DNA of 64,000 nt, taken from assembly GCA_049602055.1 (NCBI GenBank), contig JBMYRG010000003.1, positions 112,495 to 176,494 on the forward strand, in the 5' to 3' direction. The DNA comes from Alphaproteobacteria bacterium. Its GTDB lineage: Bacteria > Pseudomonadota > Alphaproteobacteria > MPNO01 > UBA2964. Position numbers and translations under genes: made by a program. The notes beneath the pieces are model-generated. The model was not told where the DNA came from, did no database searches, and worked only from the letters and a program-made list of their open reading frames with translations. Positions within the stretch are counted from its first letter, which is position 1; every line of letters begins with the position of its first letter. Shown here one piece after another: positions 12,016-39,642 of this stretch.

Positions 12016-12195
12016 TTAGGAATCGTGGTCAAAGCTGACCCGGATCAGGTGGAAAACGAAGAAAATTGCAAAAGCAAAGAATAAGAGCCCGCCATAATAC
12101 GGGACGCCGTGGCCGGAATTTGCCGCGACAAACAGTCCGCCAACCGCCATGACAGCCGTTACCGCACCCATAATCCAATTACCTAGCTGTTTCAT
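12016..12195 (-). CDS. small two-helix membrane protein (59 aa), absent from the ORF track
   Basis: Translation is MKQLGNWIMGAVTAVMAVGGLFVAANSGHGVPYYGGLLFFAFAIFFVFHLIRVSFDHDS. GAGG Shine-Dalgarno lies about 10 nt upstream of the ATG. Two hydrophobic segments. Sits downstream of the histidine kinase on the same strand. Confidence 0.35.
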   Translation of the reverse strand: MKQLGNWIMGAVTAVMAVGGLFVAANSGHGVPYYGGLLFFAFAIFFVFHLIRVSFDHDS

Positions 12196-12296: not shown

Positions 12297-13652
12297 CTAG
12301 CCGTGGACCAGTGTTGGGGTCGGCCGCTCACTATGATTAGGCTCAATCGGCAGCGATAACCGAAAAACCGTACCCTCATCCGTACTGCGCGCCAGGCTAA
12401 TATCACCACCATGGCCCAGCATCAGATCTTGTGCGATCGATAGACCAAGACCTGAGCCTCCGGCACGTGAAGAGCGCGCAAATGGCTGGAACAGCTCATT
12501 GCGAACGCGTTCCGGGAGGCCCGGCCCGTTATCAGAGATTTCAATAATGGCATGACCGACTTCGGAATGAGCTCTCACTGTTACCCGGGTTGCCCCCGCT
12601 TCAAAGGCATTACGCGCCAAATTGAGAAAAACTCGATACATTTGGTCTCTGTCAGCATGGAGTTCCAGTCGCGCATCAACACGGCTATCGAGAACAGTGT
12701 TGCCATCGCCCATCGTCTTCGCGGCGTCTGAAGTTTCATCTAGTAAGGGGGCCAATCCAAATCGCGTTAATTCAAGCTCTGTCGTCCCTTCCTGCACAAA
12801 GCGGAGAGTTTTTGAGCACAATGTTACAGCACGATCTATAGCGCCCATCAACGTCGGGGCAACACGCTTCACGTTGGGATCTTCGGAGACTTCCAAATGA
12901 TCTGACATCAGCTGAGCCGTCGCAAGGATGTTGCGCAGATCGTGGTTGATCTTGGCGACCGCGGTTCCCAACGCTGCGAGGCGCGTTTTCTGAATAAGTG
13001 CTGTTCGCAATCCCCGCTGCATGCCTGCTAGCTCACGTTCGGCAACACCAAGCTCATCAGTTCTTTTCCCCGGTTGAACGAGACGGGTCCCTTCTTCTGG
13101 TGCCTGGCGAAAGGAAACCATGGCGGCTGTAATGGACCGCATTGGGCGGACAAATAGCCATTGCAGGCTGGCATAAACCAATACGGCTGTCATGAGAGAG
13201 ATCATGATCGACAGCGCCAAGATATTCAGCGAATAATCGATCATCGCGCTCCGCAGGGGCGCTTCTGCAATAACAGTCTCGACGACAATATTAGGGTCTT
13301 TGGGTGACGCCCTAATGATCCGAAAGGTCCTGCTGTCGTCACTCAGGAGAATATCAAATGCATCGCCGATCAAGCCCATAAAACTGTGATTACTGAGATG
13401 GAATGTCGCGTCGATGCGGCGTGGCATCTCATCTGAAAGCATGAGCGATTTACTTGCTGGACGTTTTAAAACGATGCCAAATGATATTGCGTGATCCAGC
13501 AGCTCTTTTCTGAGCCGTTTATCGACCAGGTTATCCGGCGGAACCTCAAGCGCAAGACTGGCCAAATGGGCCGCAGCAATTCTCTCCTCAAGATACACGA
13601 GCCGGTATCGTCCTATAGAGGGCGCATATATAAACACTTCACTCAACATCAC
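12297..13652 (-). CDS. sensor histidine kinase (HisKA + HATPase_c), orphan in this window
   Basis: 451 aa. N-terminal domain, one TM segment, H-box (INHDLRNILATAQL) and G1/G2 ATP-binding motifs (DNGPGLP...GGSGLGLSI). No adjacent response regulator. Confidence 0.8.
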   Translation of the reverse strand: MMLSEVFIYAPSIGRYRLVYLEERIAAAHLASLALEVPPDNLVDKRLRKELLDHAISFGIVLKRPASKSLMLSDEMPRRIDATFHLSNHSFMGLIGDAFDILLSDDSRTFRIIRASPKDPNIVVETVIAEAPLRSAMIDYSLNILALSIMISLMTAVLVYASLQWLFVRPMRSITAAMVSFRQAPEEGTRLVQPGKRTDELGVAERELAGMQRGLRTALIQKTRLAALGTAVAKINHDLRNILATAQLMSDHLEVSEDPNVKRVAPTLMGAIDRAVTLCSKTLRFVQEGTTELELTRFGLAPLLDETSDAAKTMGDGNTVLDSRVDARLELHADRDQMYRVFLNLARNAFEAGATRVTVRAHSEVGHAIIEISDNGPGLPERVRNELFQPFARSSRAGGSGLGLSIAQDLMLGHGGDISLARSTDEGTVFRLSLPIEPNHSERPTPTLVHG

Positions 13653-13868
13653 AAAAAAATGGTGAGCAGCAGTAATCTGGCCGAAAGGCCTAATCCCCGT
13701 CTGGTGTTATGAGTTGTGTCTGACGCCATCAGCGGCAGTATACAGATTATTGTCGATAGGCGGTAAAGAAGATGCCGTACGCAAAAATAACTGGCCCTGG
13801 CCCAAAATAGAATAACGCCACCAAGCAAGAAGCCAGGCGGCGCTACCTAATAACGTCGCTAGAGGTTA

Positions 13869-14072
13869 TTAGCGCTTTTTAGCGGCGCAAGGATTGCAAC
13901 CACGCTTTTTGGCAGCACAGGGATTGCAACCACGTTTCGCGGCACAAGGATTACAGGCAGCAAGCTGGACATTACTGGATTTGCTGATGTCAGCAGTGGC
14001 TGCAGGCAGAGCTGTTGACGCGGCAGCAATTGCGGCAACGCTAAGGATTGTGGCAGTTTTCTTGATATTCAT
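13869..14072 (-). CDS. small secreted Cys-rich repeat peptide (3x CNPCAAK(K)RG)
   Basis: ATG at 14072 is preceded by a strong AGGAGG SD. Signal peptide MNIKKTATILSVAAIAAASTALPAATA. Mature part AACNPCAAKRGCNPCAAKKRGCNPCAAKKR. The DNA repeats differ at synonymous sites, consistent with a selected coding sequence. Confidence 0.55.
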   Translation of the reverse strand: MNIKKTATILSVAAIAAASTALPAATADISKSSNVQLAACNPCAAKRGCNPCAAKKRGCNPCAAKKR

Positions 14073-14095
14073 TTGGATCTCCCCTCCTAAAAGAA

Positions 14096-14111
14096 TTTTC
14101 GGCACCGAAAA
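14096..14111 (-). terminator. perfect palindrome TTTTCGGCACCGAAAA between the oxidoreductase stop and the SD of the Cys-repeat peptide gene (terminator / attenuator-like)
   Basis: 16-nt inverted repeat followed on the minus strand by AATTCTTTT, immediately upstream of AGGAGG. Confidence 0.3.
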
Positions 14112-14293
14112 GAAATTCCATCCGGAGGCAGAGTGTGGCGATCAAGACACAATTGTCTCAACAATCCGCAATTCTCCGCTTCCATTACATAATCATGCGG
14201 GACCCCGACACCAACTGATTACGCGATCACCTGCTTTCAACTTGTTGTGAGTGCAGCGTTAGAATGACGAACGAGAATTGATTCCGTCGACAA

Positions 14294-15718
14294 TTATCCT
14301 AAGGCGAGGAGAAATCTGACGATCTTTTTAGTACGATCACTAAACAGCGATGGCGTATAATAAGACCCCGCAGTCCGCTTGTTAATTTCGCCCAGTGTCG
14401 GATAAGGCAGGATGAGCCCGGCGACGTCCTTAATCTTCATCCTTTTCGAAATCGGCAGACACCAGCTTTGAATGATTTCGCCAGCCTTTTCACCAACCAT
14501 ACTGGCACCAACGATAACACCTTTCGATGTCGTGATCACTTTTAACAAGCCGTCCGTCTCCGCTTCCGCACGCGCGCGGTCATTATCGGCGAACTTAGCC
14601 TGTAGAACTTTTACATCGCCGAACTGTTGGCGCGCAGCCTCTTCTGTCAGGCCGACCTGAGCGAGCTCAGGCGATGTATAAGTCACCCAAGGCACAGCGG
14701 TGTAATCTGATTTTGCCGGCAACCGGAACAGAATATTCCGGATTGCAATTCCAGCCTGATATCCCGCTATGTGAGTAAATTTATATCCCTCCGCGGCATC
14801 GCCGATTGCAAACACCCGCTTGTTTGAGGTTTGCATCCGAGCATTAACAGGAATTCCACCACGTCCCGCCTCAATCCCAGCGGCTTCAAGGTTTAAGTCG
14901 CTAATATTCGGTGTGCGACCAACAGCAAGAAGCAGATGGGAGCCCTCAATGGTGAGTACTTCACCATCACGTTCGGCTTCGATAGCAATGGCACCAGCAC
15001 TGCCGGAAATGGATTTGACGAGCGCTCCCTCACGAATATCGATGCCCTCTGCACTAAGTCTTTCAGTTACAACAACGGCAAGGTCCGGGTCATCATTGCC
15101 AAGCGCTTTCAACCCTTCAATGACCGTTACTTTTGCACCGAGCCTTCGATGCGCTTGCGCTAACTCTAGGCCGATGGGGCCACCCCCTATCACCAGAAGA
15201 TGATCTATCGGTTCAGCGTGATCAAAGATTGTCTCATTGGTAAAGAATGGAACGGTATCAAGGCCGGGAATTGGTGGTACCGCGGGCGCAGAACCTGTCG
15301 AAATAATGATACGCTTCGCAGATATTTCATACTCACCGGCAACAACAGTCCGGGGACCGCTGAAACGCCCATGTTCTCGAATAACCCGGACACCAAGCTC
15401 CTCAAACCTTTCCTGAGAGTCGTGTGGCGCAATACCGGCGATCACGCCTTTCACATGGGAACGGACCTTTTCATGATCGATTGCCGGTTCACCGGTCTCA
15501 ACACCAAACCGATTTGCGGTTCGTACTGAGTGAGCAGCATGGCCTGCCGCAATCAGGGCCTTCGATGGGACACAACCGTAATTCAGGCAGTCACCACCCA
15601 TCTCGCCTTTTTCAAGGAGAACGAGATCCGCCCCCATCTGAACCGCACCGGCAGCAAAGGATAGACCACCAGAGCCAGCCCCAATGACACAAACATCGGT
15701 CACAATCCGTTCACCCAT
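14294..15718 (-). CDS. class I pyridine nucleotide-disulfide oxidoreductase (dihydrolipoyl dehydrogenase / mercuric reductase-like flavoprotein)
   Basis: 474 aa. FAD-binding GxGxxG (VIGAGSGG), redox-active disulfide GGDCLNYGCVPSK, NAD-binding motif and a C-terminal dimerisation domain. No C-terminal Cys pair as in MerA. Confidence 0.8.
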   Translation of the reverse strand: MGERIVTDVCVIGAGSGGLSFAAGAVQMGADLVLLEKGEMGGDCLNYGCVPSKALIAAGHAAHSVRTANRFGVETGEPAIDHEKVRSHVKGVIAGIAPHDSQERFEELGVRVIREHGRFSGPRTVVAGEYEISAKRIIISTGSAPAVPPIPGLDTVPFFTNETIFDHAEPIDHLLVIGGGPIGLELAQAHRRLGAKVTVIEGLKALGNDDPDLAVVVTERLSAEGIDIREGALVKSISGSAGAIAIEAERDGEVLTIEGSHLLLAVGRTPNISDLNLEAAGIEAGRGGIPVNARMQTSNKRVFAIGDAAEGYKFTHIAGYQAGIAIRNILFRLPAKSDYTAVPWVTYTSPELAQVGLTEEAARQQFGDVKVLQAKFADNDRARAEAETDGLLKVITTSKGVIVGASMVGEKAGEIIQSWCLPISKRMKIKDVAGLILPYPTLGEINKRTAGSYYTPSLFSDRTKKIVRFLLALG

Positions 15719-15754: not shown

Positions 15755-16585
15755 CTAACGGCCCTTGAACTTTTTATAGAGCACCGGCAACAACGCAAGT
15801 GCCGCCAACCCGATAATGGGTAGCAAGAATCTTAGTTCAAAGATAATTCCGAGATTAACGTCCTGACCAGCCTCGAGCAGCGCACCAACGCCGTCACCAA
15901 CCAAGGCGTACACGAAAGTACCGGGAATAATGCCGACGGCGGTTCCGAAAATATAAACGCCAACCGGGACACCTAAGAAGGCGGGGACTAAATTCACCAG
16001 CCAAAAAGGAAATACCGGGATCAAACGCAGGAATAACAGGTAGCTCAGCGCATTTTCCTTAAACCCGTCTTCCATCTTACGAATTGCGTTACCAGCCTTG
16101 TCGCGGAGCAAATCCGCCAATGCATAACGCGCCGCCAGAAAAATAGCCGTCGCACCAATCGTTGCACCAAAAACCGTTAAGGTACCGCCTAACCAGGGTC
16201 CGAACAGAAAACCACCTGCAATCGTCATAACGGCACCACCAGGAATAGAAAACGCCGTCACCACCGCGTACATGCCTGCATAGGCCAACCAGGCGACCAG
16301 ACCTGTATCGGCGACCCAACCAGTCAACGCTTCCCGGTTCTCTTTCAACGCCGTCAGGGAAAGATAACGATCAAGATCAAAGGCAAAGAAAACAACCAAC
16401 CCTGCAACAAGCACAACAACAGGGATTAATTTCGCTGGAGAAAACCCCGTCTTTCCACCGGATTCCGGCGCCGCGGAGTCTTTCTGCGTGTCATTACCCA
16501 AGGTCTTCTCCTTCGGAAAACCGGTTAAGGCATGCTGTTCAGATGCTCGCCCAACCATACCCACTAATTCTTTATCCATTTGCAT
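15755..16585 (-). CDS. DedA / TVP38 / TMEM64 family membrane protein
   Basis: 276 aa. Polytopic, with the conserved DedA core (FIPGGAVMTIAGGFLFGPW...). Confidence 0.75.
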   Translation of the reverse strand: MQMDKELVGMVGRASEQHALTGFPKEKTLGNDTQKDSAAPESGGKTGFSPAKLIPVVVLVAGLVVFFAFDLDRYLSLTALKENREALTGWVADTGLVAWLAYAGMYAVVTAFSIPGGAVMTIAGGFLFGPWLGGTLTVFGATIGATAIFLAARYALADLLRDKAGNAIRKMEDGFKENALSYLLFLRLIPVFPFWLVNLVPAFLGVPVGVYIFGTAVGIIPGTFVYALVGDGVGALLEAGQDVNLGIIFELRFLLPIIGLAALALLPVLYKKFKGR

Positions 16586-39120: not shown

Positions 39121-39642
39121 ATGTCCTCATTTGAGATTAATAAAATCGCCGGCGCCATTCTTACGGTCGCCCTTGTCGCAATGGTCATCGGTATTATCGG
39201 TGATGCCTTGGTCAAACCTAAAGATCACAAAAGCTCCATTGTCGTTGCGGACGCCCCAGCACCGGTGAAAAAAGAGGAAAAGAAGTTGGAGCCGATTGGT
39301 CCTCTCCTCGCGAGCGCTGATGTTGAAAAGGGCAAGAAAGTCGCCAATCTATGCAAGGCCTGCCACACCTTTGACAAGGGTGGTAAACACAAGATCGGCC
39401 CCGCATTGTGGGAGACAGTAGGTCGCGAAATGGGTGGCAGTGCCGACTTTAAATATTCTTCCGGCATGATGAAAATGAAGGCGAGTTGGGGCTATGAAGA
39501 ACTCAACAAGTTCCTTTTAAAACCGCGAACATACGTCAAAGGGACGAAAATGGCCTTCGTCGGCATCAAAAAGGCCAAGGATCGCGCCAATTTAATCGCT
39601 TATCTCCGGTCCTTGAGCGACTCGCCAAAGCCGCTACCTTAA
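39121..39642 (+). CDS. membrane-anchored c-type cytochrome (cytochrome c552/CycM-like)
   Basis: 173 aa. N-terminal TM anchor, single CKACH heme-binding motif, conserved Met ligand region. Confidence 0.8.
   Translation: MSSFEINKIAGAILTVALVAMVIGIIGDALVKPKDHKSSIVVADAPAPVKKEEKKLEPIGPLLASADVEKGKKVANLCKACHTFDKGGKHKIGPALWETVGREMGGSADFKYSSGMMKMKASWGYEELNKFLLKPRTYVKGTKMAFVGIKKAKDRANLIAYLRSLSDSPKPLP

Follow-up and report, generated by a model that had tools for sequence, protein, structure and literature searches.

The stretch analysed here is a 64,000-nt piece of contig JBMYRG010000003.1 from an Alphaproteobacteria bacterium (positions 112,495 to 176,494, forward strand; hereafter the window). It encodes, on its minus strand, a 67-residue Cys-rich precursor peptide, which is a stand-alone (solo) paralogue of an undescribed protein family, termed here the NPC-repeat family. 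The family is defined by a Sec-type signal peptide, followed by the motif [IV]-Q-[LI]-A-A-C and then by tandem (C)NPC-A-A-K units, and the window peptide has all of these elements. By analogy with known Cys-rich metal peptides, the mature peptide might be a disordered array of thiolates in the periplasm whose ligands are thiophilic, Cu(I) or another soft metal being the first candidate; a probability of about 0.4 is given to this reading. A role as a sulfur or redox carrier is ranked second after metal binding.

The window gene and its repeats

The gene and its parts are as follows.

13869..14072, minus strand: coding sequence of the 67-aa precursor peptide, stop codon included (translation; synonymous differences dominate in the comparison with orthologues)
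13992..14072, minus strand: predicted Sec signal peptide, codons 1-27 (MNIKK, hydrophobic core, PAATA), read from the sequence
13929..13955, minus strand: repeat 1, CNPCAAKRG, codons 40-48 (codon-pattern scan and DNA comparison, as for the next two)
13899..13928, minus strand: repeat 2, CNPCAAKKRG, codons 49-58
13872..13898, minus strand: repeat 3, CNPCAAKKR, codons 59-67

The open reading frame (ORF) at 13869-14072 on the minus strand is translated as MNIKKTATILSVAAIAAASTALPAATADISKSSNVQLAACNPCAAKRGCNPCAAKKRGCNPCAAKKR, followed by the stop. The exact protein has been deposited in NCBI as MGB0575047.1, a "hypothetical protein" from an Alphaproteobacteria metagenome-assembled genome (MAG). Comparison of the first 46 codons with the orthologue of the nearest species (L001) revealed 17 synonymous and 3 non-synonymous differences, and the comparison with a further orthologue (L014) revealed 18 and 3. 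The window ORF is a genuine, conserved protein-coding gene under purifying selection. The preliminary description of this DNA had named a lack of conservation in related genomes as grounds for refuting the ORF; this condition does not hold, since 138 homologues and 130 confirmed genomic loci were found, and the codon differences stand at 17 against 3. An overlapping ORF on the plus strand (13894-14250) was considered as a gene and rejected, since the substitutions track the minus-strand frame.

The translation agrees with the secreted peptide described previously, which had a 40-aa mature region and six Cys in three CxxC motifs; its signal peptide was read from the sequence. The N-terminus shows a basic n-region, then a hydrophobic core, and then a putative A-T-A cleavage motif. 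Family alignments showed that L22, P23 and the A-x-A positions of the predicted signal peptide are kept family-wide. These features indicate that the precursor is probably exported by the Sec route. The motif L-A-A-C (residues 37-40) was also considered as a lipobox; this was rejected on spacing, since no L-[AS]-[GA]-C directly follows the hydrophobic core. The L-A-A-C lies 13 residues past the predicted cleavage site (after Ala27), behind the charged spacer DISKSSNVQ, and it is found 40-100 residues into the chain in the long family proteins.

The mature part of 40 residues has a net charge of +8, with nine Lys/Arg against one Asp; its six Cys are distributed over three CNPC motifs. AlphaFold modelling of the window peptide gave a predicted local distance difference test score of 54 and no predicted fold, and the mature peptide is predicted to be disordered. 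A degenerate codon pattern for CNPCAAK has three matches in the whole window, against 0.01 expected by chance, and all three are located in this gene (13935-13955, 13908-13928 and 13878-13898). The repeat copies use different codons for Cys (TGT/TGC), Pro (CCT/CCC) and Ala (GCC/GCT/GCG), as had been noticed earlier for Cys and Ala, and their DNA identity is only 87% and 70%. The DNA repeat periods are 27 and 30 nt rather than the 30-33 nt estimated at first.

The NPC-repeat family

The preliminary description could not place the peptide in a family, and the database searches were in line with this. No match for the window peptide was found in Pfam or NCBIfam; a literature search for the NPCAAK or CNPC motif, DUF6969, or cysteine-rich P460 proteins returned no relevant match. 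A word-indexed search revealed 138 homologues, all unnamed, with E values down to 9e-35, and a profile search of 1.84 billion representative proteins gave 314 matches at E<=1e-3. Scanning one genome per species confirmed 130 loci, and the locus and neighbourhood counts given below cover 80 of them. The carriers are almost all marine Alphaproteobacteria, including marine Rhodospirillales, Kiloniellales, Pelagibius, Sneathiella, Oceanibacterium and Hyphomicrobiales; a few Granulosicoccaceae (Gammaproteobacteria) are also found.

Family alignments (A1 and A2) showed that C40, P42, C43, A45, C59, N60, P61 and C62 are invariant. A total of 3418 NPC motifs were counted in 358 family proteins. The residue ahead of NPC is Cys in 73% of the motifs, Lys in 12% and Ala in 7%; NPC is followed by AAK in 41% and by another NPC in 31%. 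Moreover, four short members contain no CxxC at all. These counts, together with the members lacking CxxC, suggest that the conserved unit is N-P-C-A-A-K, and that the CxxC of the window peptide is its commonest form. In the family, His and Met are very scarce, and the net charge has a median of +9.

The number of repeats varies from 2 to 6 and more among near-identical sequences (clusters of >90% identity and nearest species; L013, L001, L014, P0003 and P0123), and the array expands and contracts quickly. At one orthologous locus (L004/L012, 8001-8225; OX638326.1, a 4.15-Mb MAG chromosome), the orthologue was called as 52 aa, ending inside repeat 2; however, tblastn aligns residues 1-66 there, and the short call looks like a frameshift or an assembly error inside the repeats.

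A putative periplasmic thiolate array

The following model might account for these properties. The separately terminated gene would produce a Sec-exported precursor, and cleavage would release a 40-residue peptide of charge +8 with three NPC-centred CxxC units. The cysteines, which are set between Asn-Pro and Ala-Ala-Lys, would form an array of reactive thiolates and could take up a thiophilic ligand in the periplasmic space, for which Cu(I) or another soft metal is the most probable choice. The negatively charged metal-thiolate clusters would be balanced by the lysines; the repeat number would set the capacity rather than the fold. The peptide might then buffer the ligand or hand it over, like the metallothioneins, bufferins and oxazolins. 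Binding as such, the choice of ligand, and any joint action with the DedA protein, oxidoreductase or histidine kinase encoded next to it (described below) are inferred.

Cu(I) or another soft metal is ranked first because of the metallothionein-like composition and disorder, the variation in repeat number, the SCO1 and formylglycine-generating enzyme (FGE)-like neighbours of other family members, and the precedent of the bufferins and oxazolins. The variation in repeat number fits a capacity role. The predicted disorder without a ligand would be compatible with a metallothionein-like binder and is no test of one. Copper-chelating bufferin domains occur in fusions of the Buf1, Cytochrom_C and FGE-sulfatase type, and oxazolin precursors combine a Sec signal peptide with Cys repeats that vary in number (PMC12452194, PMC11626156); true FGEs are Cu(I) enzymes (PMC12123546).

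Several observations weigh against this assignment. CopA, CusF, multicopper oxidase and MerR/CueR genes do not recur beside the family members in the 80 loci, and SCO1 is present in just 2-3 of them (including L007 and L010). Sulfur-related neighbours and fusions (YeeE-type Sulf_transp in 10 loci, DUF302, rhodanese, and fusions of SoxA/TsdA type) are at least as frequent as the copper-related ones. The window contains no P460, FGE-like or DUF6969 gene, and so the evidence from the paralogues may not transfer to this copy. The four members without CxxC imply that chelation by CxxC pairs is not a universal feature. Furthermore, cysteines in the periplasm usually end up as disulfides, and no pathway for their reduction is demonstrated here.

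Comparison with known Cys-rich peptides

Comparison of the window peptide and its family with the oxazolins (Buf_EGKCG, HvfA-type) and bufferins showed some similarities. Both have a Sec signal peptide in place of a leader and a periplasmic location (predicted for the window peptide; PMC12452194, PMC11626156). Both consist of small Cys repeats in variable number, with Lys and Gly flanking the Cys, and both include members joined to bigger periplasmic domains, which in the known families comprise cytochrome c and FGE-sulfatase. However, there is no sequence relationship between them: the repeat is NPCAAK rather than EGKCG, and the Pfam and NCBIfam searches gave no DUF2282 match. Moreover, no MNIO (DUF692), DUF2063 or DoxX gene is located beside the window gene or recurs in the 80 loci, and Pfam annotation revealed no MNIO or DUF2063 gene within 8 kb at the orthologous loci L001-L005 and L008. 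The oxazolins and bufferins are modified by MNIO enzymes; whereas no modification is known for the NPC-repeat peptide.

The window peptide also resembles the metallothioneins, which are likewise short and rich in Cys and Lys, with nearly no aromatic residues or His, no fold predicted without a ligand, and a capacity that scales with the Cys number. Metallothioneins are cytosolic; whereas the window peptide is predicted to be exported, and it has a regular tandem repeat with an invariant Asn-Pro before Cys. The Pfam model Metallothio_Euk matched the window peptide with only E = 0.18 and 12.3 bits, against a cut-off of 22. By its sequence, the window peptide falls outside the known Cys-rich metal peptide families; it lacks the defining features of the bufferins and oxazolins (precursor signature and MNIO/DUF2063 partner genes), of the metallothioneins, of MerP and of the lipoproteins. 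By analogy, it may work like the bufferins and oxazolins or the metallothioneins, as an exported Cys-repeat binder of thiophilic ligands.

Fusions to haem proteins

In 53 of the 80 loci, the signal peptide, the Q-L-A-A-C start and the NPC array form the N-terminal half of a protein of 300-500 aa. The C-terminal part of these proteins matches Pfam Cytochrome_P460, with CxxCH near the end. Short peptides often directly adjoin the long fusion genes. Representative fusions are listed below.

L007, 5913-6860; L067, 7749-8855; L077, 7836-8834; L090, 7680-8789: P460 fusions with two arrays, including those of cultured Sneathiella and Oceanibacterium strains
L082, 7980-8870; P0132, P0140, P0141, P0145 and P0259: SoxA/TsdA-like fusions with up to ~25 NPC units

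In the two-array fusions (300-500 aa, predicted to be periplasmic), a conserved S-x-C-[VI]-[VI]-P-R-L linker separates the two NPC arrays, and both are located ahead of the cytochrome P460 domain. A variant (P0147 and P0195) contains a LysM-like segment, as read from the sequence, between the NPC arrays, and further arrays inside the P460 domain. A PDB sequence search with a P460 fusion gave no match. The uncharacterised P460 proteins with N-terminal NPC arrays (Sneathiella, Oceanibacterium, Pelagibius and Hyphomicrobiales) share the signal peptide, the Q-L-A-A-C start and the NPC repeats with the window peptide; whereas the latter resembles their N-terminal module alone, with no haem domain and no FGE-like or DUF6969 partners.

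In Granulosicoccaceae and several representative proteins, a monohaem cytochrome c domain of SoxA/TsdA type is flanked on both sides by NPC arrays. This domain has a conserved Cys (F-C-M motif) ~55 residues past CxxCH, which is possibly a haem ligand. Such fusions bring in a sulfur or thiol-disulfide carrier as an alternative: the Cys would bear sulfane sulfur or thiosulfonate, or shuttle reducing equivalents, and the array, free or tethered, would be a swinging arm for periplasmic haem enzymes, as SoxY is for SoxAX. About 27% of the NPC motifs have no preceding Cys, which suits single-thiol covalent chemistry better than chelation. The sulfur-related genes mentioned above, YeeE-type Sulf_transp (10 of the 80 loci), DUF302 and rhodanese, are located near some family members, and a NosR-like protein is encoded with ApbE and MsrB in 3-4 loci. 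In four of the loci (L035, L037, L043 and L047), the NosR/NirI-like membrane iron-sulfur protein, ApbE, a HAD hydrolase and MsrB are encoded upstream of DUF6969, the FGE-like gene and the P460 fusion; these neighbours hint at an electron supply to the periplasm.

The analogy with SoxY covers the periplasmic Cys on a flexible segment that is offered to a haem enzyme. SoxY has a single Cys in a C-terminal GGCGG, an Ig-like fold and a partner, SoxZ; whereas the NPC-repeat proteins have many Cys in a low-complexity array, with no SoxY-like GGCGG terminus and no sox genes nearby. Moreover, most of the fusions are to P460-type domains, whose chemistry is that of nitrogen oxides. The window has none of these sulfur genes near the peptide gene. 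A carrier function is regarded as rather doubtful, though worth keeping beside metal binding.

Neighbourhoods of the paralogues

The ORFs around all 80 loci were clustered, and the clusters were checked with Pfam. Three contexts were distinguished, and one MAG can hold several of them (L023 with L081, L034 with L039, and L010 with L025). Type i (17 loci, including the window) is described in the section on the neighbouring genes. Type ii (about 45 loci) comprises the P460 fusions with FGE-like and/or DUF6969 neighbours. The variable neighbours in type ii include, besides Sulf_transp and DUF302, an SNase-like protein (10 loci) and a class-I cytochrome c (7 loci); a 168-aa protein with a merely sub-threshold cupredoxin-like match was found in 9 of the 80 loci. 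In type iii (4 loci), a response regulator and a kinase are encoded directly upstream of the short peptide; the two-component system upstream of some paralogues scored below all metal-sensor cut-offs. At one type iii locus (L010), two Cys-rich periplasmic proteins and SCO1 follow. Proteins of this kind, ~150 aa (W-C-Y...H-H-Q-C-A-x-W-C) and ~182 aa (C-x6-C-x3-C), are unannotated and were found at three loci.

L010, 7340-8971; L007, 3351-4715 (minus strand); L019: Cys-rich proteins encoded with SCO1/SenC

The FGE-sulfatase-like protein, which bears a signal peptide and an invariant GCGxC, was found in 27 of the 80 loci, and DUF6969 in 34. The C-terminal region of the FGE-like protein has the invariant motif G-C-G-x-C-R-x-A-A-R-H (L007, 4818-5690, minus strand, and 26 other loci), in which CxxC takes the place of the Cu(I)-binding CxxxxC pair of FGE. 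A PDB search with this protein gave only generic matches to the FGE fold. The searches with DUF6969 gave no functional clue, and its model matches no solved structure.

These two partners suggest a further alternative, in which the NPC-repeat peptide is the precursor or substrate of a new modification. The FGE-like cuproenzyme and/or the cytoplasmic DUF6969 would act on the arrays, free or haem-tethered, and convert the C-N-P cysteines to formylglycine, a thio-adduct or a cross-link; the precursors would be Sec-exported and follow a logic like that of ribosomally synthesised, post-translationally modified peptides (RiPPs), without MNIO. The C-N-P core resembles the C-x-P of CxPxR, the substrate motif of FGE (PMC4505483, PMC12123546). 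In alphaproteobacteria as well as gammaproteobacteria, the arrays have the FGE-like gene and DUF6969 beside them irrespective of the fused haem domain. Sampling from the DUF6969 side gave the same picture: a CNPC-repeat/P460 gene is located directly upstream in 3/3 loci, and 2 of the 3 have the full order of FGE-like gene, P460 fusion, short peptide and DUF6969. The FGE-like protein has a signal peptide and its invariant GCGxC at the position of the Cu(I)-binding Cys of FGE (PMC12123546), and RiPP precursors with Sec signals and Cys repeats have a precedent (PMC12452194).

The fit is nevertheless incomplete. The fifth position of the motif is Ala, whereas FGE needs Arg; the Cys spacing of FGE is CxxxxC, whereas that of the FGE-like protein is CxxC. 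The homologues of DUF6969 (5531) greatly outnumber the repeat family. Neither an FGE-like gene nor DUF6969 is found within 8 kb at the window locus or at the 16 other type i loci. Classical RiPP maturases do not recur: MNIO, radical SAM, YcaO and lanthipeptide enzymes were not found repeatedly (at least 3 of the 80 loci), and neither these nor an accompanying protease or transporter was found at the window locus. Modification of the arrays, in particular of these cysteines, is judged unlikely.

Signals flanking the window gene

Three signals were considered around the gene.

14079..14088, minus strand: Shine-Dalgarno region AGGAGGGGAG; GGGAG is found at equal spacing in close orthologues
14096..14111, strand not assigned: imperfect palindrome TTTTCGG-CA-CCGAAAA, TTTTCGGCACCGAAAA; no function supported
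13804..13849, minus strand: intrinsic terminator, a GC-rich stem followed by UAUUCUAUUUU (folding and orthologue consensus)

The AGGAGG reported earlier as the Shine-Dalgarno sequence is present at 14083-14088, 10 nt ahead of the ATG, and a GGAG is located 6 nt ahead of it. A larger hairpin sequestering the Shine-Dalgarno sequence was suggested by the fold of the 5' region and was rejected (z -1.0; the anti-Shine-Dalgarno pairs show no compensation in orthologues).

The palindrome at 14096-14111 had been described as perfect and as a possible attenuator or terminator. Its 7-nt arms enclose a CA centre that is not self-complementary (7+2+7), and the other results do not bear out a regulatory role. 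As RNA, it folds with -3.7 kcal/mol (z -0.58), and 56 of 200 shuffled sequences fold as well; it was not called by the terminator scan and is absent from the consensus fold of the five closest orthologous leaders. It is partly kept in the four nearest species and absent in more distant ones. A search of 13500-14500 against Rfam gave no match. Another palindrome, GACACAATTGTCTC (core ACAATTGT), at 14146-14159, precedes the peptide start by ~75 nt; the four closest orthologous leaders have retained it, and it may serve as an operator.

The terminator directly 3' of the stop codon (13804-13849) folds with -24.3 kcal/mol (z -2.65). Its consensus stem has 13 pairs in eight orthologues, with compensatory changes at three of the pairs, and is followed by a T-run. 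This conserved terminator suggests that the peptide gene ends a transcription unit, and that the downstream kinase gene is not obviously co-transcribed.

Neighbouring genes in the window

The genes adjoining the peptide gene are as follows.

14294..15718, minus strand: class-I pyridine-nucleotide disulfide oxidoreductase (PNDR), MerA/Lpd-like, 474 aa, upstream (Pfam Pyr_redox_2 and Pyr_redox_dim)
15755..16585, minus strand: DedA/VTT-domain membrane protein, 276 aa (Pfam VTT_dom)
12297..13729, minus strand: sensor histidine kinase, downstream, split by a missing nucleotide in the A7 run at 13653-13659

In the type i context, the rnpA-yidC genes are followed divergently by DedA, PNDR, the peptide and the histidine kinase. 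The preliminary description had proposed to look for CNPC-repeat ORFs next to dedA or PNDR genes in other genomes. A general link of this kind is not seen: the context is restricted to 17 of the 80 species-level loci, all in a single clade, and PNDR is missing in four of them (Pelagibius), while both DedA and PNDR are missing in another (L023). All 17 loci have the rnpA-yidC synteny in common, which suggests that the adjacency of the peptide, DedA and PNDR may be inherited rather than functional. For DedA proteins of the subfamily COG0398, PNDR domains are the most frequent fusion partner in many bacteria (PMC10127716); the window DedA is placed at the level of VTT_dom only. The DedA-PNDR pairing is known in its own right, independent of such a peptide (PMC10127716).

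A sacrificial periplasmic thiol buffer against oxidants or electrophiles was also considered, which would act with the adjacent DedA and flavoprotein in an RclABC-like manner; a variant would be a MerP-like partner of a MerT/MerA-like pair. In 12 species-level loci the genes retain the order DedA, PNDR, peptide; PNDR resembles MerA and RclA by similarity, and glutathione-related genes (two glutathione S-transferases, a glyoxalase and a gamma-glutamyltranspeptidase) are located near the peptide gene. RclA, whose gene accompanies those of RclB and RclC, reduces Cu(II) and HOSCN (PMC7527725, PMC9335216, PMC12096828). The overall arrangement is also similar to MerP/MerT/MerA and RclA/RclB/RclC: each encodes a membrane protein together with a flavoprotein disulfide reductase of class I and a small CxxC protein of the periplasm. 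However, PNDR scored below all NCBIfam cut-offs, and far below those of the equivalogs RclA (181 against 740) and MerA (TIGR02053; 356.8 against 454.45). Its C-terminus (...KIVRFLLALG) lacks the Cys pair of MerA. The membrane protein is a DedA rather than MerT or RclC, and the association is found in one clade. The window peptide has neither the HMA fold (no Pfam match) nor the GMTCxxC of MerP. Four loci keep DedA, the peptide and the kinase without PNDR, and the pairing of DedA with PNDR is common where no such peptide is found (PMC10127716). A partnership of the Rcl or Mer kind is considered improbable.

The kinase gene adjoins the peptide gene in 17/17 type i loci. Compared with three orthologues, the window kinase gene lacks 1 nt in the A7/T7 homopolymer, which puts the N-terminal 27 codons in another frame; either an assembly error or a pseudogene would explain it. 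The kinase brings in the possibility of a cationic disulfide-rich effector: the peptide might be antimicrobial, or it might be a ligand in the periplasm that the adjacent kinase senses. The net charge of +8 and the six Cys are consistent with such a role, and the four type iii loci also have a response regulator-kinase pair directly upstream of a short member. However, the conserved terminator separates the peptide and kinase genes, and in the window the peptide gene is intact whereas the kinase is frameshifted. No immunity, export or processing genes are present, and a toxin or a signal would hardly be expected to be built into large haem proteins, as these repeats are. An antimicrobial or signalling role is considered very unlikely.

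A tblastn search of the window with P460, FGE-like, DUF6969, Sulf_transp and other partner proteins gave a single match, an ordinary class-I cytochrome c; its gene (39298-39615) resembles the small cytochrome c that adjoins some P460 fusions. A conserved ORF for a 59-aa membrane protein with two helices is located past the kinase gene (12016-12195, minus strand), and was also called in L001-L004 and L008.

Implications

The NPC-repeat family has had no database model or literature, and it is coupled to haem enzymes in widespread marine hosts. To our knowledge, exported Cys-repeat peptides have been recognised only recently as bacterial copper buffers (the bufferins and oxazolins), and all known ones are MNIO-dependent. 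The NPC-repeat family shares their overall logic; however, its sequence is unrelated and no MNIO enzyme accompanies it. If sulfur carriage, or modification by the FGE-like protein and DUF6969, were true, the family would point to new periplasmic chemistry attached to P460-type haem enzymes. Modification would moreover define a new class of Sec-exported modified peptides or protein-borne cofactor arms, without a known RiPP maturase. Cultivable carriers exist (Sneathiella chungangensis KCTC 32476 and Oceanibacterium hippocampi CECT 7691), which gives direct experimental access to these possibilities. If metal binding by the thiolate array were true, the NPC-repeat peptides would represent an independent way of buffering periplasmic metals, in marine Alphaproteobacteria that are abundant.

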